Positions 2,170 to 25,975 of a stretch of 63,564 nt of DNA are shown here, in pieces. The notes beneath the pieces were generated by a model, which saw only the letters and a program-made list of their open reading frames with translations, was not told where the DNA came from and did no database searches. The position numbers and the translations under genes were made by a program. The stretch's first letter is position 1, and every line of letters begins with the position of its first letter. The stretch comes from an uncultured Dehalococcoidales bacterium (GTDB taxonomy: Bacteria; Chloroflexota; Dehalococcoidia; Dehalococcoidales; Fen-1064): assembly GCA_964611805.1 (NCBI GenBank), contig CAZTBG010000001.1, positions 1 to 63,564 of the forward strand, written 5' to 3'.

Positions 2170-3792
2170 TCAGTCCCAGAGCTCCTCGATGTCCTTTTTT
2201 GACTGCTGGCCAATCCCTGCTTCACCAACGAAGCTCTTATATGACTCCGCTGAGCCGTACTCCCTCGTCCTGATGGGCACGGGCATGGGTACGGCGTGGC
2301 CGAAGATGAGGGCCTGCTGCTTCGGCGCCAGCCTGGCCAGGACCGATTTCAACTCGCTCTTACCGGAGACACCGGCCAGAACGCTGTCGATATCCTTCTC
2401 GTTATCAAGCAGGCAGGTTATCTTGGTACCAAGCTGCGACATCACCTCTTCGTCGATACCGCTCGGTCTCTGGTCGATGACCAGCAGGCTAACGTTATAC
2501 TTGCGCATCTCGCGGGCAATCGTCCCGAAGATAGCCCGACTAGCCACCTCGGGATTGAGAAACTTATGGGCCTCCTCGATAGTTATCACCAGCGGGTTGG
2601 GCGGGGCGATATCCTCGCTCATCGAGCGCTCCATCCGCTCCTGATAGCGGGCATAGATGCGCCGGGCGAGCATATTGGCCACCAGTACATAGGCAGTGAT
2701 ATCCCGGTATCGACCGAACTCAAGGACGACATTCATGCCCTTATCGAGATAGCTCAGCAACGTATTCACGGCATCGACCGGCGCGTGCGGCTCAATGAAA
2801 GACAACCGGCTGATAGTCTGCAACCCTCGCCGCAGACTCTGGAAGGTGCTCTCGTGGATATTCATCTCTTTGAGCAATTCCTGCGTGTCCTCCGACTCCC
2901 CTACATCCAGTGTACGCTGAATCCACTGCCTGCCGAAGCGACGGCGCAGCTGGTATGAGGCCTCTACGGCCAGGTCGGTGATATTCAGTGTCTGGCGGAG
3001 CAGCACCATATCCTCCGGCTCGATTTCGTCATAGCCAATCTTCACCACGAAGTCGGTACTGACCCCACGGCGGCGTGAGTTCTCCTCGTCGAGGGTAAAG
3101 ACCGCCACCTTCTCGGGGAATAGCTGCTTTAATGCCTTAACCTTGCGCCCATCCGTTTCGCTCGTACCCATCCAGCCGTACTCGTTATGCATATCAAAAA
3201 TGAGGTTAACCGACTTACTTTTTTGAAGCATGCCGATAAGCAGAATCCGGGTAAGAAAAGTCTTGCCCGTGCCGCTCTTGCCAAAAATACCGTTGGAGCG
3301 CTTGACGAACTCCGGCAGGTCTAAGCAGAGCTTGGTCTCCATGTCCAGGGGGTTCCCGATAAAGAAGCGGTTCGCGTCTTCCTCACCGAAAACGAGGTTC
3401 ATGTCATCGTCCGAGGCCAGGCTGACCATGGAAAAGTGACTGGGGACGGTCTTTACCGGCTGTGGCCCCTCAATCAGACTGGTAACATCACCACCAATGG
3501 TCAGCATCGGCAGGACATGGATGGTGCCATAGGTGGCCGTGCCGTTGAGCACCTCAGAGAGGAAGGGGTCGGCGGTATCCGGGGGGTTGACAGTGAGCTG
3601 CGGGTCGGTGACCCCCAGGCTGATGTCGGTAATCATGCCGAAAAAGCGCCGCTGCCGGCCCTCAATGGTAACGTAGCGCCCGACTACCATGTCCTCGACC
3701 GAGGCTGAGCTGTCCAGTCTGACCTCGACCCCTTTATCCACGGAGCCGGAGACAACAATACCGAGCGGCTGTCTGGCGTTTTCACCAATCAT
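2170..3792 (-). CDS. HerA-like (FtsK-HerA superfamily, DUF87) hexameric ATPase
   Basis: 540 aa. N-terminal barrel-like segment LGIVVSGS..VGRYVTIEG..FFGMITDI, Walker A GIFGKSGTGKTF, Walker B/HerA signature VITIEEAHKF, and LLVIDQRPSGIDEEVMSQ. Confidence 0.85.
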   Translation of the reverse strand: MIGENARQPLGIVVSGSVDKGVEVRLDSSASVEDMVVGRYVTIEGRQRRFFGMITDISLGVTDPQLTVNPPDTADPFLSEVLNGTATYGTIHVLPMLTIGGDVTSLIEGPQPVKTVPSHFSMVSLASDDDMNLVFGEEDANRFFIGNPLDMETKLCLDLPEFVKRSNGIFGKSGTGKTFLTRILLIGMLQKSKSVNLIFDMHNEYGWMGTSETDGRKVKALKQLFPEKVAVFTLDEENSRRRGVSTDFVVKIGYDEIEPEDMVLLRQTLNITDLAVEASYQLRRRFGRQWIQRTLDVGESEDTQELLKEMNIHESTFQSLRRGLQTISRLSFIEPHAPVDAVNTLLSYLDKGMNVVLEFGRYRDITAYVLVANMLARRIYARYQERMERSMSEDIAPPNPLVITIEEAHKFLNPEVASRAIFGTIAREMRKYNVSLLVIDQRPSGIDEEVMSQLGTKITCLLDNEKDIDSVLAGVSGKSELKSVLARLAPKQQALIFGHAVPMPVPIRTREYGSAESYKSFVGEAGIGQQSKKDIEELWD

Positions 3793-4400
3793 AACCTGAG
3801 CCTCCCCAGAATAGCCCTGAGCTTGCTGAACTCGCTGCTGAGGAGCACCGCCAGTTCGCGACCGGCCGCCTTCAGAAAGGCCTGTCTGTCCTCGTGCGCC
3901 TGGCTCATCTGGCGCAGGGTAGCGGCGACAAGCTCCTCCACCGAGACAGGTAGCGAGGTATTGAGCAGAAGGTTAAGGAAATCGAAGGACCGGCTGAATT
4001 CTCTTACCCGCTCCGAAGGACATAGGTAAACAAAACTGTGGATTCGGGGCGGTTTTGGCGGTAGATACTGATAGATAGTCTCACCGTTACTATGCCCGAC
4101 CACCAGGGTGCTGAACTCGCTGCGCAGTAGCTTTTCAAGCTGCGGGCTTGATTTATATATTTCCTCTTCGGAAGCCTCGTCCTTGCCGCGTGCAATGGGA
4201 CGCCGTCCCGGCTCAACGCTGGCGGTGGTGGCGTGGTAGACGATGCCAAACGTCTCCAGAGACGTATCTCCGACGCTCACCAGACCGCCCAGCGGCGGCA
4301 ACTCGTAGAGCTGGTAGCACTCAGCGACGAAGTGGGTGGTGCTGGCCTCGATTACCTCGCCGACCCTGTCTGATAAATCAGGCATTTTTAAAAACCCCAT
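3789..4400 (-). CDS. hypothetical protein with HAS-barrel-like N-terminus, translationally coupled to HerA
   Basis: 203-aa ORF whose stop overlaps the HerA ATG (ATGA). Its N-terminus VGEVIEASTTHFVAECYQ..LGGLVSVGD..TFGIVYHATTAS resembles the N-terminal barrel pattern of the adjacent HerA. No ATPase motifs. Confidence 0.6.
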   Translation of the reverse strand: MGFLKMPDLSDRVGEVIEASTTHFVAECYQLYELPPLGGLVSVGDTSLETFGIVYHATTASVEPGRRPIARGKDEASEEEIYKSSPQLEKLLRSEFSTLVVGHSNGETIYQYLPPKPPRIHSFVYLCPSERVREFSRSFDFLNLLLNTSLPVSVEELVAATLRQMSQAHEDRQAFLKAAGRELAVLLSSEFSKLRAILGRLRL

Positions 4401-4485
4401 CCCCCTGTGTCCCCCTTCCCCTTAAAAAGGGGAAGGGGGAATAATTTTCCTAAGAGGGGCTTCGCCCCTCTTTAACTCCCCTATT
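4395..4485. repeat. family-1 double-hairpin repeat (GGGGAAGGGG hairpin + AGAGGGGC-N4-GCCCCTCT hairpin)
   Basis: Reads ccccttcccc-ttaaaaa-ggggaagggg followed by aagaggggc-ttcg-cccctctt, then aactcccctatt. The same architecture recurs at 4692, 7741, 24091, 36269 and 43901. Confidence 0.8.
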
Positions 4486-4603
4486 TCTTTTTGCCCTTTT
4501 CGGCCTTTTTGTCCTTCTGCTTGGGTTTTTTGATGTTTTTACGTCCCTTGGTACCCATTTTCAGCTCCTTCCAGCCACAGTTTGTATCCCGGCGACCCTA
4601 TCC

Positions 4604-4669
4604 CCTGCCCGCCGTCCCTCCGGCCTGCTCGCCGTACGACTTCGGCAGGCGAGGACTATGGCAGGCGGG
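4604..4669. repeat. family-2 GC-rich palindrome (CCTGCCCGCCGTCC...ACTATGGCAGGCGGG)
   Basis: cctgcccgcc...ggcaggcggg inverted repeat with an inner hairpin cctgctcgcc/ggcaggcgagg. The same core occurs at 27.2, 37.3 and 54.4 kb. Confidence 0.7.
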
Positions 4670-4691
4670 CCTTTATCCCCTTCAGGAAGAA

Positions 4692-4773
4692 CCCCTCAGG
4701 GTGAACCCTTCCCCTGAGAGGGGAAGGGGAGCTTTATGTAAGAGGGACTCCGCCCTTCTTCGACTCCCCTATT
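4692..4773. repeat. family-1 double-hairpin repeat
   Basis: cccttcccc-tgaga-ggggaagggg followed by aagagggac-tcc-gcccttctt, then cgactcccctatt. It is a degenerate copy of the 4395 element. Confidence 0.75.
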
Positions 4774-4838
4774 TGTATGCCGCATAAAGCGGATACACAC
4801 TAATTATTTCCTACACGTGCGCACAGAAAAAAGAGACT

Positions 4839-5138
4839 TCAGCGGTCTGTACGTTCTTTATTTATCTCTTCCTTCAATCTATAGCACTCTTCTAAGTCGA
4901 CATTAAACGCATTTGCCAATGCTATCACATAATACAAAACATCATAAAGCTCTTCTTCAATCGTACCTTTGATAGTCTTATTGCGGTCACCTCGGTATCT
5001 TTGATTATTCCTTACAACTTCGGCGAGCTCTCCTACTTCCTCTACCAGCTTCATAAAGTAGCCCTCTTTTAACTCGGGTTTAAAGTCCTTATCTTTGATG
5101 TATTGTTGCAGGTATTTAATCGTTATGTTATGTCTCAT
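4839..5138 (-). CDS. MazG-like nucleotide pyrophosphohydrolase
   Basis: EEVGELAEVV and EELYDVLYYVIALANAFNVDLEE are typical MazG helices. I prefer the start MRHNITIKYL (5138) over the ORF-track start 5207, which overlaps the upstream gene by 50 nt. The gene is visibly AT-richer than its flanks. Confidence 0.75.
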   Translation of the reverse strand: MRHNITIKYLQQYIKDKDFKPELKEGYFMKLVEEVGELAEVVRNNQRYRGDRNKTIKGTIEEELYDVLYYVIALANAFNVDLEECYRLKEEINKERTDR

Positions 5139-5157
5139 AGCCACCGTCTTTACTTTA

Positions 5158-5637
5158 CTATAGATATCCCTCCATAGTGTTGTAGGCTGCCCGGAGCCGG
5201 TCACCAAGCAGGCAGGCCAGCTTGTCCATCACCCTGAACCCGATTACCGGCTCTTTCTCTAGCGCCGCTCTGAGCCTGGCCCCCTCGATGATAATCAGTT
5301 CACTGGGCTGCCGGCAGACAGCCGAGGCCGTAGCGTATCTTGGCCCGTAGAGCAGTGCCGACCAGCCCATAGCCCTACCCCTACTTAAAAGCCCCAGGGG
5401 CCGGGTGGCTGTCTTGTCACCGAGATTAACCGTCCGCTGCAGGACCACCTGACCGCTAACAATAACATAAAGATTAGAGCTCAATTCCCCCTGGTCAAAA
5501 ACATGGTCGCCGGCCTGATATGATTCCATCTGGCAGCTATCCCCGAGCAGGCCGGTAATTACCTGCACCTCACTCTCATCCAGCGAGTCGAACAGCTCGC
5601 ACGTCCTCAGGTCCTTACAAATATTGCTAGCCGCCAT
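5158..5637 (-). CDS. stand-alone cyclic-nucleotide-binding (CAP effector) domain protein
   Basis: 159 aa. LFDSLDESEV..FDQGELSSNLYVIVSGQVVL..GRAMGWSALL matches the cNMP-binding beta-barrel pattern. No output domain. Confidence 0.8.
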   Translation of the reverse strand: MAASNICKDLRTCELFDSLDESEVQVITGLLGDSCQMESYQAGDHVFDQGELSSNLYVIVSGQVVLQRTVNLGDKTATRPLGLLSRGRAMGWSALLYGPRYATASAVCRQPSELIIIEGARLRAALEKEPVIGFRVMDKLACLLGDRLRAAYNTMEGYL

Positions 5638-5832
5638 GTTCCTCTCCTTCCTCCGAAGGCGATGTCTTACGGTTGTCTCGGTATTCTACAACTGCAATTC
5701 CACCTGGTCAATGTAATGAAACAAGTCATACTAGCTCTATCACCTACCAACTCTGTACATTTCACATGTTAAATTATGCACCCCGCCACCCCTCGTGTTT
5801 TCCATTCGGTAATCCTGTCCCCTCTTTTCCCC

Positions 5833-6387
5833 CTAGTCTTTAAGAATAATATCTATCTCACCTCTATTTTCAGTCTCTTCTTCAATATCTCTTTTATAAG
5901 TGTATATGAGTTCAAACCTTGTTGGGTCCCCACTCTCAGGGACTTCAAAAACCCAAAATGCCGTTGCGCCCTCCGTTATCTCGCTGGGACTCGTTATGTC
6001 GTGCGGGTCAGTGAATGTAATTCCCTTAAGGTTGGCAGCGATAGACTTATATGTCTGACCTGTGGTGTTCAATAAAGCCGTTTCCTCCTCGCCATAACCG
6101 AACGCATCAATCATGTGTACATTCTCAATACGGGTGACAGTCAGATAAATGCAGAAGAAATCATGCCCCGTAGCAGGTGCAGGCGGCTGGTAATGCGTTG
6201 TGGTCGAAAGGTCTTCGACTATGTCGGCAGGCATAACGCTGGCTCTCTCTATTTTGTCGATAACAATCGTGACGTTAGTGTCAGATGCTTCAATATTCTC
6301 CGAACCCGATTCGGAGCCGGATACTCCACCACAAGCACCGAGTAAGCTAACGCCAATTACTAGCATTGTTACTAATAGTCTTATCAT
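5833..6387 (-). CDS. lipoprotein (DUF4352-like beta-sandwich, tentative)
   Basis: Signal peptide plus lipobox MIRLLVTMLVIGVSLLGAC. The gene is AT-rich. The fold assignment is only a guess. Confidence 0.65.
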   Translation of the reverse strand: MIRLLVTMLVIGVSLLGACGGVSGSESGSENIEASDTNVTIVIDKIERASVMPADIVEDLSTTTHYQPPAPATGHDFFCIYLTVTRIENVHMIDAFGYGEEETALLNTTGQTYKSIAANLKGITFTDPHDITSPSEITEGATAFWVFEVPESGDPTRFELIYTYKRDIEEETENRGEIDIILKD

Positions 6388-6444
6388 TCTAACCTCTCTT
6401 TTCTACCCCGTGTGATGGGGACACAGGGGGTGAGATTACCGATA

Positions 6445-13539: not shown

Positions 13540-13569
13540 TTGATTTTACCGAATTGCGTGTGGTATACT
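13540..13569 (+). promoter_or_regulatory. candidate sigma70-type promoter of the nuo operon
   Basis: TTGATT, 18 nt, TATACT. GGGAGG lies 7 nt before the TTG start of nuoA. Confidence 0.35.
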
Positions 13570-13600: not shown

Positions 13601-13972
13601 TTGCTAGCAAACTTCGGCTTCGTTGGACTGTTCATAATCGCTGCCATTGCCTTTAGCTGTTTACTCGTTATTATCCCGGTAGCTCTCAGGTTCCTCAAAC
13701 TGGTACCCCACAACCCCAATCCTATCAAGAATGCTTCCTTCGAATGCGGCATGGAGACGATTGGCAAGACGTGGGTGCAGTTCAACATCCACTACTACTT
13801 CTATGCCCTGATATTCCTTGCCCTGGATATCCTGGCGGTCTTCCTCTACCCATGGGCAGTCCAGCTGAGGGAACTGGGGACTTTTGGCCTCAGCGGCGTG
13901 GTCATTTTTATTGTCATCATCCTGGTTGCGTACGTCTATGCGTGGCAGAAGAAGGTCCTGGAATGGAAATAA
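13601..13972 (+). CDS. nuoA: NADH-quinone oxidoreductase subunit A
   Basis: 123 aa. SFECGME..YYFYALIFLALDILAVFLYPWA. Confidence 0.9.
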   Translation: MLANFGFVGLFIIAAIAFSCLLVIIPVALRFLKLVPHNPNPIKNASFECGMETIGKTWVQFNIHYYFYALIFLALDILAVFLYPWAVQLRELGTFGLSGVVIFIVIILVAYVYAWQKKVLEWK

Positions 13973-14586
13973 GCAGGGGCAGAGAACACTTATACTCGGA
14001 TGCAGAACTTGACCTGGTTGAAGGACAGATAATTGAGGACCTGAAGGCATCCAGTCAAGAACCAATCCCTGACCCTGATAGCTGGCTGGACGAAGAACTG
14101 AGCCAGAATGTCCTGCTAACCAAGCTGGACTGGATAATCAACTGGGGACGGCGTTCCTCGATGTGGCCGGTTATCTGCTTCCCGGCCTGCTGCGCCTTTG
14201 AGTTCATTTCCGTGATGGGCCCCCGCTTTGACATGGGACGCTTTGGCATGGAAGTCCTGCGCGCCTCGCCTCGCCAGGCAGACCTGCTAATTACCGCAGG
14301 CACGCTGACCTGGAAGATGGCACCCAATGTGAGGCGGATATACAACCAGATGGCTGAGCCGAAATGGGTTATCGCCATGGGTGCTTGTGGCATCAGTGGT
14401 GGCATCTTTCGTTCGTCGTATAACGTAGTCCCCGGATACAACCGCATTATTCCGGTCGACGTCTACGTACCCGGTTGTCCACCGCGTCCGGAAGCCCTGC
14501 TGCACGGCATACAGATGTTGCAGGAGAAAATTGCCAGAAGAAACAACTTCATCAGGAATAGCCAACCTCAAAATGATGGCGGATAA
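13963..14586 (+). CDS. nuoB: NADH-quinone oxidoreductase subunit B (about 45-aa N-terminal extension)
   Basis: SMWPVICFPACCAFEF, MGACGISGG and VPGCPPRPEAL are the N2 cluster ligand motifs. The start ATG at 13963 overlaps the nuoA stop. The 13744 start in the track lies inside nuoA. Confidence 0.9.
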   Translation: MEISRGREHLYSDAELDLVEGQIIEDLKASSQEPIPDPDSWLDEELSQNVLLTKLDWIINWGRRSSMWPVICFPACCAFEFISVMGPRFDMGRFGMEVLRASPRQADLLITAGTLTWKMAPNVRRIYNQMAEPKWVIAMGACGISGGIFRSSYNVVPGYNRIIPVDVYVPGCPPRPEALLHGIQMLQEKIARRNNFIRNSQPQNDGG

Positions 14587-14618
14587 TGTCGCTGAATCCC
14601 GAATAAGGAGTTAGACCA

Positions 14619-14813
14619 GTGACAAAGTTCAATGTAGGTGACAGAGTCAGGGTCCTCGATAGGCCGGGCTGGCCCGGGGGATATAAGATAGCCAACTGGG
14701 AGGGCCAGATTATCGAAGTGAAAGAGGACCCACTGGGTTACGTCATCATGCGGGCCGACAAGACCGGCTATGACATGGCATTCCCAGAGACCGAACTGGA
14801 GAAGATACAATAG
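14619..14813 (+). CDS. small SH3-like protein (PsaE/NdhS-like sequence pattern) inside the nuo operon
   Basis: 64 aa. The GTG start is preceded by AAGGAG at good spacing. Sequence is VGDRVRVLDRPGWP..WEGQIIEV..GYVIMRADKTGYDMAFPETELEKI. It sits between nuoB and nuoC on the same strand. Confidence 0.6.
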   Translation: MTKFNVGDRVRVLDRPGWPGGYKIANWEGQIIEVKEDPLGYVIMRADKTGYDMAFPETELEKIQ

Positions 14814-14833: not shown

Positions 14834-15271
14834 ATGACTACCTCTCTCTTAGCTTCAGAAGTTGCCAAGCAAATAAGCGAACGCCTGCCCGGTGCGGTTG
14901 TAGAAGCCAGCGATACCGCTATTCTGGTAGTCGGTAGTTCGCTATTAGATGTAGCTACTTTCCTCAAGGATACCGCCGGGCTTGACTTCGACTACCTGAC
15001 CACAATCACGGCGGTCGATTACTACCAGTATTTCGAGGTTATCTACCTGTTCGTCTCCATGGAGCATAACCACAACCTGTTTGTGAAAACCCGCTGCCCC
15101 CGAGAAAACCCCTCATTACCCTCGCTGGTCAGCCTGTGGCGCAGCGCTGACCACCAGGAACGGGAAATTTACGACCTTATGGGAATCACCTTTGAAGGTC
15201 ATCCGAATATGAAACGAATCGTCCTCTGGCCGGAGTTCCAGGGACATCCGCTACGGAAGGACTACCTGTAA
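14834..15271 (+). CDS. nuoC: NADH-quinone oxidoreductase subunit C
   Basis: 145 aa. HQEREIYDLMGITFEGHPNMKRIVLWPEFQGHPLRKDY. Confidence 0.9.
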   Translation: MTTSLLASEVAKQISERLPGAVVEASDTAILVVGSSLLDVATFLKDTAGLDFDYLTTITAVDYYQYFEVIYLFVSMEHNHNLFVKTRCPRENPSLPSLVSLWRSADHQEREIYDLMGITFEGHPNMKRIVLWPEFQGHPLRKDYL

Positions 15272-16375
15272 ATGCAGTTGAGAACCGAGCCGTTTGTCCT
15301 CAATATCGGGCCGGTGCACCCGAGCACCCATGGGGTGTTCCGCATGAGGGCCACCCTCGACGGGGAAGTCGTTGTTGACCTCGAACCGGTCTTCGGTTAC
15401 CTGCACCGCGGCATTGAAAAGCTGGCCGAGGAGCGTACTTATGGTGGGGTCATCCCGCTAACGGACCGGCTCGACTACGTGGCTTCGGTAACCAACAACC
15501 TGGGCTATGTCCTCGCCGTAGAGAAGCTTGCCGGTATTTCCGTGCCTGAGCGGGCCGAATACATCCGGGTTATCACCTCCGAAATGCAGCGTATAGCCGC
15601 CCACCTGGTATCGGTCGGTTCCTTCCTAAACGATGCCGGTGCCTACTTTACCCCATTCCTCTACATGTACCGCGAGCGGGAGAACATTGTAGACCTCTTT
15701 GACATGGTCTGCGGTCAGCGCCTTCTCTACAGCTACATGCGCATCGGCGGTGTCAGCCAGGACCTCCCTGATGAATTTTTGCCGGCCCTGCGTAAATTTA
15801 TCCCCCGCATGCGCTCACGCATTGACGAGTATGACTGGCTCCTCAAGGAGAATGAAATTCTACTGGCCCGCGCCAAGGGTGTGGGCGTACTGCCGCGAGA
15901 AACGGCGATTAACATCGGGGCCAGCGGACCGGTGCTCCGTGGTAGTGGGGTTAAATGGGACCTGCGCAAGGCAGACCCCTACTCCGTGTATGACCGCTTC
16001 GAGTTCGATATCCCAACCGGTGAGATTGGCGACTGCTACGACCGCTACCGGGTGAGGATCGAGGAGATGCGCCAGAGCCTGCGTATTATTGAGCAGGCAG
16101 TTAAGCAGATACCTCCCGGAGAGGTACGGAGCGAAGTGCCACATCTATTACGGCCACCGGCGGGTGAAGCCTATGCCCACGTGGAGGGAGCCACGGGAGA
16201 GGTAGGCTTTCATGTGGTCTCCGATGGCTCCATTGCCCCGTACCGGTGCCACATCCGGGCACCCAGTCTGATGAACCTGACAGCACTCAAAGATATGATT
16301 GTCGGCTGGAAGGTCCAGGACCTGATACTCATCTTCGGCAGCTTTGCTATCACCATGGGCGAGGTTGACAGATAA
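15272..16375 (+). CDS. nuoD: NADH-quinone oxidoreductase subunit D
   Basis: 367 aa. NIGPVHPSTHGVFR, YLHRGIEKLAE and C-terminal RAPSLMNL..GEVDR. Confidence 0.95.
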   Translation: MQLRTEPFVLNIGPVHPSTHGVFRMRATLDGEVVVDLEPVFGYLHRGIEKLAEERTYGGVIPLTDRLDYVASVTNNLGYVLAVEKLAGISVPERAEYIRVITSEMQRIAAHLVSVGSFLNDAGAYFTPFLYMYRERENIVDLFDMVCGQRLLYSYMRIGGVSQDLPDEFLPALRKFIPRMRSRIDEYDWLLKENEILLARAKGVGVLPRETAINIGASGPVLRGSGVKWDLRKADPYSVYDRFEFDIPTGEIGDCYDRYRVRIEEMRQSLRIIEQAVKQIPPGEVRSEVPHLLRPPAGEAYAHVEGATGEVGFHVVSDGSIAPYRCHIRAPSLMNLTALKDMIVGWKVQDLILIFGSFAITMGEVDR

Positions 16376-17499
16376 TGATAGTCCCGAATATCACGGTTGA
16401 TGCTTTACGCCACTTTGCACCCGTATCTCCGGACTGGCCGGGCAACGAGTGGTGGCACTGGCTGGTATTCACGGTCATCCTCATAGTATTTATCCTGGTG
16501 ATGGTCATCATCTTCATCTGGCTGGAACGCAGGATTATCGCATGGTTTGCAGCGAGAATCGGCCCCAACCGGACCGGCCCTTTCGGAATTTTTCAGAACA
16601 TCGCTGCCGCCCTCAAGCTGCTGCTCAAGGAGGGGATAAACCCGACAAACGCTGATATAATTATCTTCTGGCTGGCGCCGATAGTGGCCTTCGCCCCGGT
16701 AATCATCGTTCTTGCGGTGGTCCCCTTCCAGAATGGTGCCCTGCTGGCTGACCTGAACATAGGTATCCTCTTCGTTGTCGCAATCAGCTCGATTTCCACC
16801 ATCGGTATTTTTATGGCCGGCTGGAGCTCGAGCAATAAGTATTCGATGCTGGGCGCGATGCGTATGATAGCAGCCGTGGTCAGCTACGAGATTCCCGTAG
16901 TATTAGCCCTGGCCGGCGTCGTCCTGCTGGCCGGTTCGCTGTCGCTCAACGACATCGTAATAGCACAGGAGCGTGTGCCATTTATCGTGCTACAGCCTCT
17001 TGGCTTCCTGCTCCTCTTCGTTGGCGGCTGCGCCGAAATAAACCGCAGCCCCTTTGACCTGATGGAGGCGGACTCCGAGCTTGTGGCTGGTTTCCACACC
17101 GAGTATTCAGGTATAAAGTGGGCCATGTTTTTCCTGGGAGAGTTCGGCGAGATGGTGGTCATGTCAACCCTAATCGCCACACTGTTCCTCGGTGGCTGGC
17201 AGGGACCAGCTCTACCGCCGTGGCTTTGGTTGTTGATAAAGATATTCATAGTGGACTTTGTCATGATATGGACCCGGGCCACGCTGCCGCGTGTCCGGAT
17301 AGACCAGTTGATGGCACTGGCCTGGAAGTTCATGTTCCCGCTGGCCCTGGTGAACCTGATTATAACGGCGATACAGGTACTTGCCTGGCCGGATGCCCTG
17401 CCACTTTACGTGATACCGATTAACTGGGCTATTACAATCATACTGGTGCTGCTGGGAAGCAAGCTCTTTAAGGTAGGATGGGGTAGAGTTGAAGTTTGA
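16375..17499 (+). CDS. nuoH: NADH-quinone oxidoreductase subunit H
   Basis: 374 aa polytopic protein. GPFGIFQNIAAALKLL and CAEINRSPFDLMEADSELVAGFHTEYSG. It follows nuoD directly, so no nuoEFG is present. Confidence 0.95.
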   Translation: MIVPNITVDALRHFAPVSPDWPGNEWWHWLVFTVILIVFILVMVIIFIWLERRIIAWFAARIGPNRTGPFGIFQNIAAALKLLLKEGINPTNADIIIFWLAPIVAFAPVIIVLAVVPFQNGALLADLNIGILFVVAISSISTIGIFMAGWSSSNKYSMLGAMRMIAAVVSYEIPVVLALAGVVLLAGSLSLNDIVIAQERVPFIVLQPLGFLLLFVGGCAEINRSPFDLMEADSELVAGFHTEYSGIKWAMFFLGEFGEMVVMSTLIATLFLGGWQGPALPPWLWLLIKIFIVDFVMIWTRATLPRVRIDQLMALAWKFMFPLALVNLIITAIQVLAWPDALPLYVIPINWAITIILVLLGSKLFKVGWGRVEV

Positions 17500-17971
17500 A
17501 CGATACGGGATTGGCATTGCCAAGGGCCTCACGGTAACCATGAGGAACCTGCTGCGGCGCCGGATAACCACACAGTACCCGGAGCAGAGGCTAACGGTAT
17601 CGCGCCGCACCCGCGGCAATGAACTGGTCTGGAGCAAAGAAAAATGCACCGGCTGCGCTACCTGCGCCAGGACCTGCCCGCAAGGAGTAATCCATATAGT
17701 GACGTCCCCCGGCGAGGAGAACCGCTACAATGTTGAAGTATTCGAAGTAGACACCGGATACTGCATATCGTGTGGCCTGTGTGTTGAGGCCTGCCCCTAC
17801 GATGCCCTCTTCATGGGCTATGCCTTCGAACTGGCTAAGTACCGGCGCGGGGAACTGGTGCTTTCCCGAGATGATATGTTGATAGAGAATAAACAGGCAA
17901 GCGCCTATTTCCACCCCGAAAATGCCGAGGCCCTGCCCAAGCAAGAACTGTTAATAGACCGGAAGGAGTAA
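17489..17971 (+). CDS. nuoI: NADH-quinone oxidoreductase subunit I (2x[4Fe-4S])
   Basis: CTGCATCARTCP and CISCGLCVEACP. Confidence 0.9.
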   Translation: MKFERYGIGIAKGLTVTMRNLLRRRITTQYPEQRLTVSRRTRGNELVWSKEKCTGCATCARTCPQGVIHIVTSPGEENRYNVEVFEVDTGYCISCGLCVEACPYDALFMGYAFELAKYRRGELVLSRDDMLIENKQASAYFHPENAEALPKQELLIDRKE

Positions 17972-17978
17972 AAGAGCG

Positions 17979-18467
17979 ATGGCAATGGACTTCGCCTTCT
18001 GGCTGCTGGCCATCGTCAGTGTAGCCGCTGCACTGGCGGTAGTACTGCTGCGTGACGTCTTCCGGGCAGCGCTTGCGCTGGTACTGTGCTTTATCATGGT
18101 GGCCGGCCTCTATGTTACTCTAAGCGCCGATTTTCTGGCGGCGGTGCAGATTCTGGTCTACGTTGGTGCCATTTCAATACTGCTTATCCTGGGTATAATG
18201 CTCACGCGTGACGTCCAGCGTGGCAGTCCGCCCAACAAGCTGCGCTTCCCGGCCTTACTGGTAGCCCTGCTATTTATTGGAACGGCCATTTTTGCTGTGT
18301 TCAATACCCCGTGGGGAATATCGGCAGGGGCGCCGGTGGAGCCAACTACCGCCACATTAGCGGGTAAGCTTTTCGGTGAAAACGGCTATATCCTTACGGT
18401 AGAGATTGCCGCCGTCCTTCTGCTGGCGGCAATCATCGGGGCCATTGTTCTGGTGAGGGAGAAGTAA
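17979..18467 (+). CDS. nuoJ: NADH-quinone oxidoreductase subunit J
   Basis: 162-aa membrane protein. AVQILVYVGAISILLI. Operon position fits nuoJ. Confidence 0.85.
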   Translation: MAMDFAFWLLAIVSVAAALAVVLLRDVFRAALALVLCFIMVAGLYVTLSADFLAAVQILVYVGAISILLILGIMLTRDVQRGSPPNKLRFPALLVALLFIGTAIFAVFNTPWGISAGAPVEPTTATLAGKLFGENGYILTVEIAAVLLLAAIIGAIVLVREK

Positions 18468-18470
18468 AGT

Positions 18471-18782
18471 ATGTCGGTAGGTCTGGAACATTACCTCGTG
18501 CTCTCGGCTATCCTGTTCGCCATCGGCCTGTACGGGGCACTGTCCAAGCGCAACACAATCGCTATCTTGCTGTGCATTGAGATTATGCTCAATGCAGTTA
18601 ATATCGCCCTGGTCGCCTTCTCCCGGTTTGTCGCTCCTCAAATGCTGACAGGACAGGTCTTTGTCATTTTCATCATGGCCGTGGCGGCTGCCGAAGCAGC
18701 CGTGGGCCTGGCGATAATAATGGCGATATACAGGCGTAAAGGCACGGTTGACCCCACGGAAATAGACTCGATGAAACGGTAG
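18471..18782 (+). CDS. nuoK: NADH-quinone oxidoreductase subunit K
   Basis: 103 aa. [27 protein letters not shown]. Confidence 0.9.
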
Positions 18783-18983
18783 TTGACTATGTGGGTAGAG
18801 ATTAAGAAAACACCAAACCTGATGATGGCAGAGATGTGGAAGGAGTTCTTCGAAGGGGAGGGAATACCAACACGCATCATGCCAGAGTCCGGCCTGCCCA
18901 TCGGACAGGAACTAACCACCTATCGCATCCTGGTTCCCGAAGACAAAAGACACGTGACTGAAGAGGTACTGAGGAAACTGTAA
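18783..18983 (+). CDS. small DUF2007-like protein between nuoK and nuoL
   Basis: About 64-66 aa (TTG at 18783 or ATG at 18789). AEMWKEFFEGEGIPTRIM..YRILVPEDKRHVTEEVLRKL resembles the DUF2007 pattern. Its stop overlaps the nuoL ATG (TAATG). Confidence 0.55.
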   Translation: MTMWVEIKKTPNLMMAEMWKEFFEGEGIPTRIMPESGLPIGQELTTYRILVPEDKRHVTEEVLRKL

Positions 18984-20944
18984 TGTCAAGCCAAGCTTTC
19001 TGGCTAATCTTCCTGCTGCCAGTAATCTCCTTTGTGCTGATATCGGTGCTGGTCAAGCCCTTTACCAGGCGTGACTCACCGGTGGCAGGATACATCACCA
19101 TCATGGCCATCACCGGCTCAGTCATACTGTCTATCTGGACGCTGGTCGAGGTCATGGGTGCGCCGAACCATGAAATACACGTGCCCGATATCACCTGGGT
19201 GATTATCGGAGACTTCAGCATCAATCTGGGCATTATCATGGATGCCCTGACAGCCGTGATGGTGGTGGTGGTCTCGGTTGTCAGTCTCATGGTACAGATA
19301 TACTCCCTGGGCTATATGGAGCACTTCGTCCATAAGGAGGGAGACACTTATACGCGCTACTACGCCTGGATGTCGCTGTTCACTGCCTCGATGCTCGGTC
19401 TGGTAATCGCCGACAACCTCCTGCTGATGTTCGTCTTCTGGGAGATGGTGGGACTGTGCTCTTATCTCCTCATCGGGTACTGGTTCCACAAGCCGTCGGC
19501 GGCTAACGCTGCCAAGAAGGCCTTTATCGTCACCCGATTCGGCGACTTCGGCTTCCTGATAGCTATCCTAGTGCTTTATGCCAATACAGGCACATTTGAT
19601 ACTGCTCAAATAAGCGAGATGGCGGCGACTGGTTTTCTTGCCGGCGGGACACTTACCTGGGCATGCATCGGCATCTTCTCCGGCGCAATGGGCAAATCGG
19701 CGCAGTTCCCGCTCCATGTCTGGCTGCCTGACGCTATGGAAGGCCCAACCCCGGTCAGCGCCCTCATCCATTCGGCGACAATGGTCTCGGCAGGCGTTTT
19801 CCTCGTGGCCCGCACCTTTCCGATATTCGCTCACTCAATCGAGGCCGTTACACTGGTGGCTTCCATTGGAGGTTTTACTGCAATATTCGCCGCCTCGATG
19901 GGCCTGGTAATGAACGACATCAAGCGGGTGCTGGCTTACTCTACCATCAGCCAGCTTGGCTACATGATGCTGGCACTGGGAGCAGCCGGTATCGCACTTA
20001 ACCACGAGGGAAACATTACCATTGAGGCCGCCAAGGCGGCCGTTGCCATCGGTATCTTCCACCTGTTCACCCACGCTTTCTTCAAGTCATTGCTGTTTCT
20101 TGGCGCCGGTAGCGTCAATCACGCCACCGGTACATTCGACATGCGTATCATGGGAGGCCTACGTAAAGTGATGCCCTGGACGTATATTACATTCCTCCTC
20201 GGCTCGTTGAGTCTGGCTGGTATCTGGCCGCTGGCAGGCTTCTGGAGCAAGGACGAAATCCTCCTGACTGCCCTGGAAGGCAACCGTTTCCTGCACGCTC
20301 TGGCAATGATTACCGTCTTCATGACAGCCTTTTATATGTTCCGTGTAATATTTATGACCTTCCACGGGGAGTATCGCGGCGGTGAATCGAAGGAGTACAG
20401 CCATCCCCACGAATCATCGAAGGTTATGGTACTGCCGCTGGTATTTCTTGCTATCCTGGCAGTTGTGGCCGGGTGGTGGAATATCGGTGGAGACTTCAGC
20501 CAGTTCATGGGGCATGGTGAGCCGACATCGTTCGGGGCGAGATTTTTTGGAATTTTCGCCGAGTCACCATGGCCTATCATATCGTTGCTGCTGGCGTTGG
20601 CCGGTATCGGGCTTGCCTACCTGATGTACGGCTCGAAGCGGATTTCAGCAGAGCAAATCGGCGCCCGCTTCAAACTGCTCTACAACACCCTGATTAACAA
20701 GTACTGGTTCGATGAATTATACGAGAACATCATCGTGAAGAAGGCCCTGCTCGGCGGAATCTTCGCCAGATTCCAGGAAATGGACAGCAACGGCGTTGAT
20801 GGTGTGGTGAACGGCGTAGCCGGAGGCACCTTCGGCAGTGGTAATGTTATCCGACGACTGCAGACAGGACAGCTCCAGCTGTATGGGCTGTTTATCGGGC
20901 TGGGGGCAGCGGTGATTGCCATCGTCCTCTTTATCGTCGGATGA
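18983..20944 (+). CDS. nuoL: NADH-quinone oxidoreductase subunit L
   Basis: 653-aa antiporter-like subunit. WEMVGLCSYLLIGYW and KSAQFPLHVWLPDAMEGPTPVSALIHSATMV. Confidence 0.95.
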   Translation: MSSQAFWLIFLLPVISFVLISVLVKPFTRRDSPVAGYITIMAITGSVILSIWTLVEVMGAPNHEIHVPDITWVIIGDFSINLGIIMDALTAVMVVVVSVVSLMVQIYSLGYMEHFVHKEGDTYTRYYAWMSLFTASMLGLVIADNLLLMFVFWEMVGLCSYLLIGYWFHKPSAANAAKKAFIVTRFGDFGFLIAILVLYANTGTFDTAQISEMAATGFLAGGTLTWACIGIFSGAMGKSAQFPLHVWLPDAMEGPTPVSALIHSATMVSAGVFLVARTFPIFAHSIEAVTLVASIGGFTAIFAASMGLVMNDIKRVLAYSTISQLGYMMLALGAAGIALNHEGNITIEAAKAAVAIGIFHLFTHAFFKSLLFLGAGSVNHATGTFDMRIMGGLRKVMPWTYITFLLGSLSLAGIWPLAGFWSKDEILLTALEGNRFLHALAMITVFMTAFYMFRVIFMTFHGEYRGGESKEYSHPHESSKVMVLPLVFLAILAVVAGWWNIGGDFSQFMGHGEPTSFGARFFGIFAESPWPIISLLLALAGIGLAYLMYGSKRISAEQIGARFKLLYNTLINKYWFDELYENIIVKKALLGGIFARFQEMDSNGVDGVVNGVAGGTFGSGNVIRRLQTGQLQLYGLFIGLGAAVIAIVLFIVG

Positions 20945-21017
20945 ATAAGCTAAAAAGACCACGGGGCCAGGCCCCGTTCAATTGAGAATAATAGAAATCG
21001 GATAGGAGTTAAGAGGC

Positions 21018-22502
21018 TTGGATTCGGGTTGGCTGCTAGCCATCATCCTGCTACCGGTTGCGGGGTCGATACTGATTGCGTTTATACCCGGTCTCTCCGA
21101 GAGGCTCATCAGGTATATCGCCGCTCTCTTTACCCTGGCGTCTTTGATACTGGCGGTAGTTGTCTTCGCCGGTTTCGACCGGTCAATAGGTGGATATCAG
21201 TACGAGCTGAAGGCGTCGTGGATTCAGGCAATCAATGCCAACTTCCACCTGGGAGTGGATGGGCTGAGCCTGCCGCTGGTGCTGTTGACCGCCTTCCTCG
21301 GATTCATGGTGGTCCTCATTTCGTGGAAGATTCATGAGAGAGTACGTGAGTACTTCGCCTGGCTGCTCCTGCTGGAGACGAGTATCCTTGGCGTCTTCTG
21401 CTCGCTCGACCTGCTGCTCTTCTTCATCTTCTGGGAAATAGAGGTTATCCCGATGTACTTCCTCATCTCGATATGGGGAACGGGACGTCGCGAGTACTCG
21501 TCAATCAAGTACGTTCTCTATACCCTGTTCGGCAGCGCCTTCATGCTGGCCGGTATCCTCAGCCTCTACTTCACCACCGGCAGCCTCAGCATGGTGGATA
21601 TCTCCGAAGGCGGGCTGGCCATGGTACAGTCCATCATGCCGGCGTCAATCATCTTCTGGCTGCTCATTATCGGCTTTGCCGTCAAGCTACCGGTCTTTCC
21701 ACTGCACACCTGGTTGCCGGATGCCCATACCGATGCCCCGACCGCCGGCAGTGTTATGCTGGCCGGGGCGCTCATCAAGATGGGCGGCTACGGGATGATT
21801 CGTGTCTGCGTGAGTATCTTCCCCAATGTTGCCCAAGACTTTGCGCCGCTGTTGCTGACTCTGGCCGTCATCAGTGTGCTCTACGGAGCAGCCCTCACGC
21901 TGCGCCAGACCGACCTGAAACGGATGATTGCCTACAGCAGCGTCAGTCACATGGGCTTCGTGCTGCTGGGTATCTTTGCCCTGGGTGAGGTAAGCCTTAC
22001 CGGCGCCGGTCTTCAAATGGTCAGCCACGGTTTACTTACGGGACTGCTATTTGCCATGGCTGGCCTGACGATGCACAACGTTGAAGAACGTGACCTGAGA
22101 AAGCTCGGAGGACTGGCCCGGCAGATGCCGGTTATCGCTGTTGTCTTCTCAATTGCCGGACTCGGTTCACTGGGACTGCCGCTGACCAGCGGCTTTGCCG
22201 CCGAGTTCATCACCTTCTCTGGAGCCTTTTCCAGCACTGTCGTCGGCGGTGTCCAGGTCTATACACTGCTGGCAGTGCTGGGCGTGGTCCTGGCTGCCGG
22301 CTACATCCTGTGGATGCTACAGCGGACATTCTACGGGCCGGTGCTGGAGCAGTATAACGGGGTCAAGGACGCGGACAATCTGGAGAAGGTCTACATGTTC
22401 TCCTTTGTCATCCTGATTCTGCTGGTCGGGATTTACCCGGCAATACTGACCAATGTTATTAAGCTCGGCATTTCGCCGATAGCGAGTTTGATAGGTGGCT
22501 AG
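21018..22502 (+). CDS. nuoM: NADH-quinone oxidoreductase subunit M
   Basis: 494 aa. FWEIEVIPMYFLI and KLPVFPLHTWLPDAHTDAPTAGSVMLAG. Confidence 0.95.
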   Translation: MDSGWLLAIILLPVAGSILIAFIPGLSERLIRYIAALFTLASLILAVVVFAGFDRSIGGYQYELKASWIQAINANFHLGVDGLSLPLVLLTAFLGFMVVLISWKIHERVREYFAWLLLLETSILGVFCSLDLLLFFIFWEIEVIPMYFLISIWGTGRREYSSIKYVLYTLFGSAFMLAGILSLYFTTGSLSMVDISEGGLAMVQSIMPASIIFWLLIIGFAVKLPVFPLHTWLPDAHTDAPTAGSVMLAGALIKMGGYGMIRVCVSIFPNVAQDFAPLLLTLAVISVLYGAALTLRQTDLKRMIAYSSVSHMGFVLLGIFALGEVSLTGAGLQMVSHGLLTGLLFAMAGLTMHNVEERDLRKLGGLARQMPVIAVVFSIAGLGSLGLPLTSGFAAEFITFSGAFSSTVVGGVQVYTLLAVLGVVLAAGYILWMLQRTFYGPVLEQYNGVKDADNLEKVYMFSFVILILLVGIYPAILTNVIKLGISPIASLIGG

Positions 22503-22516
22503 CATAGGAGTAGACC

Positions 22517-23977
22517 TTGAACTTTGAGCTGTTAGCACCGGAAATTAGTTTGGTAGCAACGGCTGTGGCCGTAATCCTGCTGGACCTGTTTGTCCAGCGA
22601 AAGGGACTGCTGGCGATTGTCAGCATTATCGGTCTGGCAGTATCTGCCGGATTCACCATCGTCATGTACGGCGAGCCTTCACGTACCATCTTCAACAACA
22701 CTCTGGCAGTGGACAACTTTGCTCTATTCTTCAAGCTGCTCTTCCTGGGAATTACCGCCCTGGTAATTCTGGCCTCAGTCGATTATGTATCGAAGTTTGA
22801 GCGTTTCCGGGGTGAATACCATGCGCTGCTAGTGCTGTCGGCGCTGGGCATGCTGCTGATGGCGACTGCCACCGAGCTTATTACTATCTACGTCTCCCTG
22901 GAACTGGCAAGTATCTCGCTCTATATCCTGGCCGGTTTCCTCAAGAACCCCAAGTCGAGCGAGGCCTCGATGAAGTACCTGCTACTGGGTGCCACCGCCT
23001 CAGCGGTGCTCCTCTACGGAATGGCACTCGTCTTCGGCACCACCGGCACAACGCAACTGGGTGAAATCGCCCAGCGGGTCCAGACCCTCGGTGTACAGGG
23101 AGTCATCGATAATCCGGCCCTTATTCTGGGTATTGTCCTGCTGATAGCCGGTTTCGGATTCAAGATTGCCGCCGTGCCCTTCCAGATGTGGGTACCTGAC
23201 GTTTATGAAGGTGCCCCAACCCCGATAACTGCCTATCTTTCTGTAGCGAGTAAGGCGGCTGGCTTTGCCATCATTCTCCGCATTTTCAGTACTGCCTTCG
23301 GCCTCCCCAACTGGCTGAGCCTGGACTGGGGTGTTATCTTCGCGGTATTAGCGGCTATCGGTATGACGGTGGGTAATCTCTCGGCGTTGCCGCAGACCAA
23401 TATCAAGCGTATGTTCGGTTACTCCAGCATTGCCCAGGCGGGCTATCTTATGGTCGGGCTGGCAGCCATGGGCATGGCATCAGCCGGTGCAACCATCGGG
23501 CAGAGCACCATCCTCTTTTTCCTGCTGAGCTACGCGGTAGCCAACATGGGGGCCTTTATCGCCATCATCGCCATCACCAACAAGATTGACAGTGACCTCA
23601 TCCAAGACTTTTCCGGAATAGCCAAGCGGTCGCCGCTGATGGCGCTGGGGCTGACCGTCTGTCTGGTATCGCTGATAGGTATGCCACCGGCAGCGGGCTT
23701 CATGGCCAAGTTCTACATCTTCGGCGGGGCAGTACAGAACGGGCTGCTCTGGCTGGTCATCATCGCCGTGCTCAACAGCGTCATATCCGCCTTTTACTAT
23801 CTGCGCGTTGTCAAGGTGATGTGGCTCGGTGAACCGGCATCGACGGAGAAGGTGCCCTCCTCGGCAGCATTACGATTAGCCCTGACGCTCACCTCTCTCG
23901 GCGTCCTGGGACTGTTTATCTTTGCCGACCCCATCATAAAGGCAGCCGAAGCCGCCGCCAAGATGTTCGGGTCTTAG
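22517..23977 (+). CDS. nuoN: NADH-quinone oxidoreductase subunit N
   Basis: 486 aa. FKIAAVPFQMWVPDVYEGAPTPITAYLS. Last gene of the operon. Confidence 0.95.
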   Translation: MNFELLAPEISLVATAVAVILLDLFVQRKGLLAIVSIIGLAVSAGFTIVMYGEPSRTIFNNTLAVDNFALFFKLLFLGITALVILASVDYVSKFERFRGEYHALLVLSALGMLLMATATELITIYVSLELASISLYILAGFLKNPKSSEASMKYLLLGATASAVLLYGMALVFGTTGTTQLGEIAQRVQTLGVQGVIDNPALILGIVLLIAGFGFKIAAVPFQMWVPDVYEGAPTPITAYLSVASKAAGFAIILRIFSTAFGLPNWLSLDWGVIFAVLAAIGMTVGNLSALPQTNIKRMFGYSSIAQAGYLMVGLAAMGMASAGATIGQSTILFFLLSYAVANMGAFIAIIAITNKIDSDLIQDFSGIAKRSPLMALGLTVCLVSLIGMPPAAGFMAKFYIFGGAVQNGLLWLVIIAVLNSVISAFYYLRVVKVMWLGEPASTEKVPSSAALRLALTLTSLGVLGLFIFADPIIKAAEAAAKMFGS

Positions 23978-24678: not shown

Positions 24679-25914
24679 ATGGTCTCAAAGGAAGCAGAGA
24701 ATTTAGAAGCACTGAGAGAAGAGGTTCGGGCATTTCTACGTGAGAACCTGCCCGAGAAGTGGGGAACACCGGCATATGAGGCACCGGAACAGGGTAGCGA
24801 GGAAGCAATTGCCCTGAGCAAATCTTTTACTAGGAAGCTGTATGACGCCGGCTATACCGGATTCGGCGTTCCCGCCGCGTACGGTGGCGTAGAACGACCA
24901 CGAGAGGAGATAGCAGTCATCCGCGAGGAGCTCAGACGCCAGGGGATACCAATGCCATTCGTTGGTCTCGGACGAGTGGTCGTCGACACACTACTACAGT
25001 GGGGTACGGAGGAGCAAAAGAAACGCTTCATCCCCGGGATACTGAGTGGCGAAGTCCACTGGATTGAGGGTTTGTCCGAACCCAACGCCGGTTCTGACCT
25101 GGCCGGTGTCCAGACCACCGCTGTCAGGGACGGCGATGAGTGGGTGATAAACGGGCAGAAGGTCTGGACCAGTGGCTGGGACTATGGGGAATGGGGCTTC
25201 TTGTTGTGCAGAACAGACGTGAATGCCCCGCGGCACCGCAACCTGAGCTTCCTTCTCTTTGACTGTTCTACGCCCGGCTTCAGTCGAAGGCCATTGCTCC
25301 AGATGACTGGTGAAGCCCATGCCCAGTACGGCGAACTGTTCTTCGACGACATGCGCGTCCCCCACGAGAACATGGTAGGGGAAGAAGGCAGAGGCTGGTA
25401 TGTCACTATGACGACCCTGATTGCGGAGAGGGGTGGAGGCCAGGTATCCGCAGCCTCCGGCGAGACTGGTGGAATGGGTATGGGCCTGTTTGGTGCAAGG
25501 ACCATAGGTGGTGTTGACAGTCTGATTGAGCTCGCCAGGAAGACCAAGCACTATGGTCAGACGGCCTGGGACGATGTCAGTTTCCGCAGGAGAATAGCCC
25601 AGCTCGCCATTGAGAACGAGGCTATGAGGGCTTATGGTATGCGCCTCGGCAAGATGATTATGAGTGGGTCCGCCTCCGGAAATGAAGCCTCGATGGCGAA
25701 ATTGACCTGGACCGAACAGGGCAAACGGCGGGGAGACATGGTGTGTGAAATCATTGGGGCTTACTCCCAGTTGATGAGGGGTGACCCAAGGGCAGTAGAT
25801 AATGGTGACCTTGTTTTCAGTATGCTCATGTCACGGGGTACCACTATATTCATGGGGACCTCGGAGATATGCCGCAATATTCTCGCCGAGAGGATACTGG
25901 GGCTACCCAGATGA
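24679..25914 (+). CDS. acyl-CoA dehydrogenase family protein
   Basis: 411 aa. LSEPNAGSDLAGVQTTA, INGQKVWTSG and C-terminal IFMGTSEICRNILAERILGLP. AAAGGAG RBS. Confidence 0.9.
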   Translation: MVSKEAENLEALREEVRAFLRENLPEKWGTPAYEAPEQGSEEAIALSKSFTRKLYDAGYTGFGVPAAYGGVERPREEIAVIREELRRQGIPMPFVGLGRVVVDTLLQWGTEEQKKRFIPGILSGEVHWIEGLSEPNAGSDLAGVQTTAVRDGDEWVINGQKVWTSGWDYGEWGFLLCRTDVNAPRHRNLSFLLFDCSTPGFSRRPLLQMTGEAHAQYGELFFDDMRVPHENMVGEEGRGWYVTMTTLIAERGGGQVSAASGETGGMGMGLFGARTIGGVDSLIELARKTKHYGQTAWDDVSFRRRIAQLAIENEAMRAYGMRLGKMIMSGSASGNEASMAKLTWTEQGKRRGDMVCEIIGAYSQLMRGDPRAVDNGDLVFSMLMSRGTTIFMGTSEICRNILAERILGLPR

Positions 25915-25975
25915 TAGTCTGGTGAGATAAAGGGTACAGAATATTGGTCAAGAAGGAATGTAAGGAGCACTAGCT

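Follow-up and report, generated by a model that had tools for sequence, protein, structure and literature searches.

The window analyzed here, 63,564 nucleotides (nt) from an uncultured Dehalococcoidales bacterium (assembly GCA_964611805.1, contig CAZTBG010000001.1, positions 1 to 63,564 of the forward strand), carries a nuo operon for complex I in which a gene for a mini-protein of 64 amino acids (aa) lies between nuoB and nuoC. This open reading frame (ORF; 14619-14813, plus strand, GTG start, 64 codons plus stop) is a genuine gene subject to strong purifying selection, and its product, confidently predicted to form a 5-stranded SH3-like beta-barrel, is encoded with the core subunits in conserved synteny. 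We favor, tentatively and at a probability we put slightly below even, the interpretation that the mini-protein is a lineage-specific accessory subunit or stabilizer of the peripheral arm of the complex. The analysis adds a candidate supernumerary subunit of complex I and an unannotated protein family; the mini-protein may help to explain how the complex is built and is no evidence for a particular electron donor. For complex I-like enzymes with 11 subunits, the donor and the architecture of electron input constitute an acknowledged open question (PMC11238625, 2024), and in the same work the operon of Desulfitobacterium hafniense is shown as plain nuoABCDHIJKLMN, with the Dehalococcoides enzyme described as similar. 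Conserved, strongly constrained, and encoded in the operon, this small protein is a concrete candidate in an abundant sediment lineage.

The ORF, translated as MTKFNVGDRVRVLDRPGWPGGYKIANWEGQIIEVKEDPLGYVIMRADKTGYDMAFPETELEKIQ, is preceded by a Shine-Dalgarno sequence AAGGAG (14605-14610, plus strand), which by direct sequence reading is located 8 nt 5' of the GTG codon. The first-pass annotation, made from the sequence of the window, had reported a 64-aa ORF with this ribosome-binding site on the operon strand, and its report holds on each of these points. The ratio of nonsynonymous to synonymous substitution rates (dN/dS) is 0.012 and 0.062 relative to the 2 closest relatives (dS of approximately 0.56), the comparisons for which it is usable, synonymous sites being saturated in more distant pairs. 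A non-coding explanation for 14619-14813 was rejected, because the region has no match in Rfam and its dN/dS is that of protein-coding DNA. No paralogue of the mini-protein was found in the window by tblastn. A search of 5.8 billion proteins yielded 210 homologous clusters (52-97% identity), nearly all of 63 aa and named only "hypothetical protein", which come from metagenome-assembled genomes of Dehalococcoidales or Dehalococcoidia and from sediment or groundwater metagenomes. The alignment contains 3 invariant or near-invariant blocks, GD+V+V-DRP, W-EG-x-I/V-EVK-x-DP-x-G, and KTGY-x-MAFPE-x-ELEK. In a divergent clade of 59-aa proteins, YTLS takes the place of the WPGGYKIA loop and the C-terminal half is almost unchanged. 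The proteins are small, soluble, and mildly acidic (median isoelectric point [pI] 5.3, median net charge -1), with no cofactor motifs. The family has no model in the Pfam and NCBIfam libraries searched, and targeted full-text searches of the literature retrieved no mention of it. One homologue, P0106, carries the precomputed Pfam label PF26460.1, a model that gave no match in the Pfam copy used; the family may already be covered in a more recent Pfam release.

Upstream of the ORF, on the same strand, are nuoA (13601-13972; Pfam Oxidored_q4, E = 6.5e-31) and nuoB (13963-14586; Oxidored_q6, E = 1.9e-27, and NCBIfam NuoB models), the latter encoding 207 aa if translated from the conserved MEISRG start and sharing its first 10 nt with the end of nuoA. 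Downstream follow nuoC (14834-15271; Complex1_30kDa, E = 1.2e-41), in a short form of 145 aa, and nuoD (15272-16375; Complex1_49kDa, E = 5.8e-95, and NCBIfam NuoD). The ORF is separated from the end of nuoB by 32 nt and from the start of nuoC by 20 nt, and no plus-strand terminator-like site was found in the window between nuoB, the ORF, and nuoC. Since nuoD and nuoH (16375-17499) overlap by one base, nuoEFG are not part of the operon, exactly as the first-pass annotation had described, and a Pfam scan of 30 of the larger ORFs outside the operon but within the window detected no nuoE, nuoF, or nuoG.

The same gene order recurs across relatives. In a survey of one genome per GTDB species, which yielded 47 loci (labelled Dehalococcoidia or Chloroflexota with few exceptions), the ORF is placed between nuoB and nuoC in 32, and the same holds for 47 of the best 80 among 238 metagenomic loci. 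A reverse survey seeded with 7 NuoC homologues (68-81% identity), which reached only operons carrying the mini-protein gene, recovered an orthologue of 63-65 aa between nuoB and nuoC in 8 out of 8 loci. Packing can be even tighter than in the window: nuoB and the ORF overlap by 4 nt in locus L003, and the gaps measure 3 nt in L005. A look at the nuoB-nuoC spacer of related operons had been proposed as a check on the earlier reading, and the place of the ORF proves conserved even in relatives whose NuoA is 43-50% identical to that of the window. The mini-protein diverges from the window copy in step with the core subunits: within the 59-aa clade, its identity is 52-62%, alongside 43-49% for NuoA, 57-70% for NuoB, 49-62% for NuoC, and 65-74% for NuoD. 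The operons of this clade (L044, positions 4676-6403; also L039 and L042-L055) have an additional gene between nuoC and nuoD, encoding a 575-aa B12-binding radical SAM protein of the B12_SAM_Ta0216 family (TIGR04190, E = 1.5e-207). We know of no reason for the presence of such an enzyme inside a nuo operon.

An AlphaFold2 model built from a 34-sequence alignment (predicted local distance difference test score [pLDDT] 88.5, predicted template modeling score 0.73) contains 5 strands, at residues 9-12, 28-36, 39-46, 52-56, and 60-62, in SH3-like order. When the model was compared with the PDB using Foldseek, no match reached E <= 1e-3, and the top 50 matches were uniformly small SH3-like barrels, among them SH3, PWWP, and Tudor-like domains. 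The list is headed by the KOW domains of NusG/Spt5 (E from 2e-3, template modeling [TM] score ~0.73). NdhS chains 6khi_S, 6a7k, and 3c4s occupy ranks 10, 11, and 15, with TM scores of 0.66-0.77 over whole chains (0.72/0.76 for 6khi_S) and weak E-values of 6e-3 to 2e-2; neither PsaE nor R67 dihydrofolate reductase (DHFR) appears in the top 50. The SH3 fold that had been proposed from the sequence pattern is thus borne out by the predicted barrel and by its best structural matches, NdhS included.

The first-pass annotation had gone further, assigning the protein to the ferredoxin-docking families PsaE and NdhS. We compared profiles with hhalign, with 100 column-shuffled controls per family, using verified NdhS sequences from the PDB together with a 32-sequence NdhS alignment, and verified PsaE and R67 DHFR sequences, of which the R67 sequence was checked against PDB entry 1vie. 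The score for NdhS, 12.6, is no better than that of the shuffles (11.1 +/- 3.1; reached by 21 of 100; HH probability 0.4-0.7%), and the Pfam family PF11623 matched none of the 34 members of the alignment even at E <= 10; homology to NdhS, and with it the proposed membership in that family, was therefore rejected. PsaE scored 25.2, a value that none of the 100 shuffles attained (10.0 +/- 2.4, maximum 17.3; HH probability 50-53%), with E-values of 1.4e-4 to 1.7e-4 over 54 columns in pairwise comparison, and PF02427 gave a sub-threshold match (E = 0.15) in one of the 34 members. The similarity to PsaE thus appears real but weak, above chance and below any threshold of membership. For R67 DHFR, the score rose to 30.8 (shuffles 10.1 +/- 2.4, 0 of 100 reaching it; HH probability 81-85%), with 33% identity over 54 columns (E ~1e-5), and PF06442 was matched below threshold in 12 of 34 members (best E = 0.0025), the window protein scoring 12.5 bits where the cut-off is 25. 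Because R67 DHFR outscores PsaE, the resemblance is to the SH3-like barrel group as a whole and not to its ferredoxin-docking representatives specifically. The PsaE-like pattern of the earlier reading is, accordingly, genuine but not specific.

The remaining sub-threshold Pfam matches, to SH3_15, KOW2_Spt5, SH3_2, SH3_3, NHase_beta_C, and thiocyanate hydrolase alpha, all concern proteins of SH3-like fold; searches of Pfam, NCBIfam, and PDB sequences returned nothing above threshold, and NCBIfam nothing at all. PsaE, R67 DHFR, and the nitrile hydratase beta subunit are placed together in the SCOP SH3-like superfamily b.34.4, and the weak sequence signals of the mini-protein appear to cluster in this group. 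The closest characterized sequence relative of the family is R67 DHFR, an evolutionarily isolated enzyme whose origin is, to our knowledge, obscure.

Under the interpretation that we favor, the mini-protein, a soluble SH3-like beta-barrel of ~7 kDa, would be made together with NuoB, NuoC, and NuoD and would act as a small interaction module that attaches to the cytoplasmic peripheral arm, perhaps where NuoE, NuoF, and NuoG cover the surface in 14-subunit enzymes. Once bound, it might stabilize the arm or help to shape the electron-input end, a job of the kind that NdhS performs in cyanobacterial NDH-1, although relatedness between NdhS and the mini-protein is not demonstrable. We infer, in other words, physical association with the complex, a place of binding, and any link to an electron donor. 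This interpretation is supported by the frequent and apparently ancestral position of the gene between nuoB and nuoC, by the close spacing of these genes, by the low dN/dS, by the predicted fold with NdhS of the likewise N-module-less NDH-1 as one of its best full-length matches, by the persistence of the nuo association in the divergent 59-aa clade, and by a degree of conservation similar to that of NuoB. Several observations weigh against it. The mini-protein gene is found away from any nuo gene in 15 of the 47 species loci and 33 of the 80 metagenome loci (about 32-41%). The sole significant sequence relatives of the family are partners or domains of MaoC/hot-dog hydratases and not electron-transport proteins. 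Furthermore, small ORFs embedded in operons are not always subunits, as exemplified by the unidentified reading frames (URFs) of the Paracoccus nqo cluster.

The relocated genes, like all others in the species survey, were seen in one copy per genome and encode proteins that are almost unchanged in sequence compared with the operon copies; therefore, the same partner has probably been kept. Their neighborhoods are diverse. In 13-20 loci of one lineage, the ORF follows hsp20 (L074, L076, L080, L081, L084, L090, L091, L098, L112, L118, L121, L128, and L131); in this abundant sediment lineage, the mini-protein gene is located ~90 nt 3' of hsp20 on the same strand. In another lineage (8 loci), it follows aspS-tig-clpP, at the place where clpX often sits, so that a proteostasis neighborhood recurs, and in 3 loci it comes after genes for an M50 peptidase and a GreA-like protein. 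In 5 further loci (L030, L032, L085, L126, and L140), a gene for the CCA-adding enzyme is present beside the ORF on the opposite strand, with no nuo genes around. A gene for this enzyme is also found in the window, divergently oriented 5' of nuoA, so that loss or transfer of the nuo genes, with the mini-protein gene left in place, seems to lie behind the arrangement in these 5 loci. The list of non-nuo neighbors extends to genes for a VWA-domain protein, a SWEET transporter, a sugar nucleotidyltransferase, DUF1847 with a thiolase, and a DksA-type zinc finger protein. Clustering and annotation of the neighbors in non-nuo loci revealed no single alternative partner, the contexts being lineage-specific housekeeping ones. 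The nuoB-nuoC position is by far the commonest and the only deeply conserved neighborhood, the others each being confined to one lineage. In a neighbor-joining tree, which has low resolution as it is based on 63 residues, the deepest branches are all nuo-linked, whereas relocated copies are scattered among operon-linked ones; therefore, the operon position looks ancestral, and the tree suggests that it was followed by several relocations.

The hydratase-associated relatives emerged from an exhaustive hidden Markov model search of 1.84 billion representative sequences, which gave 67 matches. Beyond orthologues, these comprise proteins of 65-80 aa with a common N-terminal half and the domain at the C-terminus of ~460-aa MaoC/FAS1-DH hot-dog hydratases, with E-values of 1e-14 to 1e-6 for the significant non-orthologous relatives (4.7e-14 for P0131 and 3e-12 for P0135). 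The hydratase-associated and nuo-associated mini-proteins have in common the N-terminal half VGDRV+IKDRPDWPGxY+LAxSEG and differ in the C-terminal half. The wider domain family, with P0131, P0151, P0154, and P0178, occurs in fused or separate forms with hot-dog hydratases of 420-460 aa; in L057 (positions 3728-5210), for example, a separate gene for a 69-aa relative is located directly 3' of a gene for a 419-aa hot-dog protein. Such fusion/fission pairs imply a complex of a hydratase with an SH3-like small subunit, apparently undescribed, and the domain family began as, or also serves as, a hydratase partner module. Neither the window copy nor the 32 operon-linked species copies have a hydratase neighbor; a MaoC gene is present ~2.5 kb downstream in L008 and L009 only, and the adjacency in L008 is possibly coincidental.

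These observations need to be weighed against other explanations of the operon-embedded gene. The relocated loci and the hydratase-associated relatives bear on a general cellular role apart from complex I, in which the mini-protein would be an SH3/KOW/Tudor-like adaptor in proteostasis or in transcription and translation that merely resides in the nuo operon. We regard this as unlikely, yet as the most serious of the competing explanations. Roughly a third or more of the loci lie outside nuo operons, with Hsp20, trigger factor/ClpP, the CCA-adding enzyme, M50/GreA-like proteins, and DksA-type proteins as repeated neighbors; the near identity of relocated copies would mean that genomes of either kind contain the partner; KOW domains lead the structural matches; and the nearest significant relatives are associated with hydratases and not with respiratory enzymes. 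On the other hand, the alternative contexts differ from one another and each marks a single lineage, whereas the operon position is common, deep, and apparently ancestral, every NuoC-seeded locus carries the gene, and no KOW or nucleic-acid-binding family of Pfam is matched above threshold. The chaperone and protease neighbors, together with a gene position exactly between the first peripheral-arm genes and a small, soluble product, are also what one might expect of an assembly or quality-control factor that holds NuoB, NuoC, and NuoD during Fe-S insertion or docking and is absent from the mature enzyme. The single-lineage origin of each chaperone neighborhood speaks against this as well, as do the lack of similarity to known assembly factors in Pfam and NCBIfam and a conservation as high as that of core NuoB, which better fits a permanent interface; we consider such a factor rather doubtful, less probable than a general role.

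The explanation put forward by the first-pass annotation, a PsaE/NdhS-type docking subunit that would identify ferredoxin as the electron donor, draws on the SH3-like fold and the high rank of NdhS in the structural comparison, on the weak but real profile similarity to PsaE, and on the absence of nuoEFG from the operon. Acidic ferredoxins normally dock at basic sites, whereas the mini-protein is mildly acidic and has no Lys-rich tail as found in NdhS. The profile similarity to NdhS is at shuffle level, that to PsaE is surpassed by R67 DHFR, about a third of the orthologues are encoded away from nuo genes, and ORF lists and Pfam scans revealed no ferredoxin gene linked to the operon in the window. 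Finally, in the Fd-NDH-1L structure, NdhS itself is ~25 A away from ferredoxin and does not touch it (PMC7021789). For these reasons the step from a PsaE/NdhS-like appearance to a ferredoxin donor is a weak one, and we judge the docking role improbable. Still far less probable is an R67 DHFR-like homo-oligomer that would serve as a minimal input module by binding a nucleotide, NAD(P)H or a different one, in its central pore. R67 DHFR does provide the best profile match to any characterized family, with sub-threshold Pfam matches in about a third of the members; however, the Pfam score is half the cut-off, the enzyme is outside the top 50 structural matches, and K32, Q67, I68, and Y69, the residues of its active-site pore, are aligned by hhalign to V12, M53, A54, and F55 of the mini-protein.

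The remainder of the nuo operon extends on the plus strand through nuoH, nuoI, nuoJ, nuoK, a second small ORF, nuoL, nuoM, and nuoN (16375-23977), as delimited from the ORF list, with identities taken from gene calls and Pfam matches in the collinear relative L001 and, for NuoI, from NCBIfam. The second small gene (18789-18983, plus strand), between nuoK and nuoL, encodes 64 aa from an ATG and matches DUF2007 with E = 1.4e-4, below the curated cut-off, and no NCBIfam model. From a TTG at 18783, it would encode 66 aa; it adjoins nuoK and overlaps the start of nuoL. In L001, L003, and L005, a 64-aa counterpart with 59-94% identity is found at this position. The operon therefore comprises 13 genes rather than 11, and it is conceivable, if on balance doubtful, that these specify a 13-gene enzyme with 2 built-in, lineage-specific small proteins. 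In that case, the SH3-like protein, recruited independently as a functional analogue of NdhS, would be positioned on the bare NuoI/NuoC/NuoD surface and help to form a docking site for a low-potential donor. If true, this would provide a first means of approaching how electrons enter a non-photosynthetic complex I of 11 subunits.

A promoter-like site (13540-13569, plus strand) 5' of nuoA, consisting of TTGATT, an 18-nt spacer, and TATACT with a TG extension, was found by a consensus scan only, and such a match is no evidence of function. Directly 3' of nuoN are 2 acyl-CoA dehydrogenase-like genes (24679-27130, plus strand), encoding 411 and 384 aa by translation, and an enoyl-CoA hydratase gene is located at 32526-33362 on the minus strand of the window.

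Among known systems, the mini-protein resembles the supernumerary subunits of bacterial complex I, such as Nqo15 and Nqo16 of Thermus and the NDUFS4, NDUFS6, and NDUFA12 homologues of Paracoccus, in being a small soluble protein that would have been added to the peripheral arm in a particular lineage. Those subunits have other folds, and their association with the complex has been shown experimentally. The hot-dog hydratase-associated domains differ from it in being fused to a hydratase or encoded directly after one, which is not the case for the orthologues of the mini-protein, with the possibly coincidental exception mentioned above. R67 DHFR and the mini-protein have in common the elements GDRVR, W-x-G-Q-I, EGY, and LE+I, but the former is a plasmid-borne resistance enzyme whose catalytic pore residues are not kept in the latter.

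PsaE, likewise an SH3-like barrel, aligns over 54 columns, including the GxxVRV start, the YVIMRADKTGY strand, and the acidic ELE end, and differs by a long loop that the mini-protein does not have. The neighbors of the mini-protein are nuo genes and not photosystem genes, which were found neither in the window nor in any related locus; Dehalococcoidia are non-phototrophic. NdhS, which has no detectable sequence relationship to the mini-protein, carries a basic Lys-rich C-terminal tail (...PKEKAKAKK), whereas the mini-protein ends after its last strand (ELEKIQ) and is encoded inside the nuo operon of non-photosynthetic Dehalococcoidia. In the cyanobacterial enzyme, NdhS is bound in a groove of NdhI on the peripheral arm, where it serves as the foothold for NdhV (PMC7021789). 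What unites the 2 proteins is a length of ~60 aa, a predicted SH3-like barrel on the side of the mini-protein that matches 6khi_S over the whole chain, and a complex I-type enzyme that functions without NuoE, NuoF, and NuoG.

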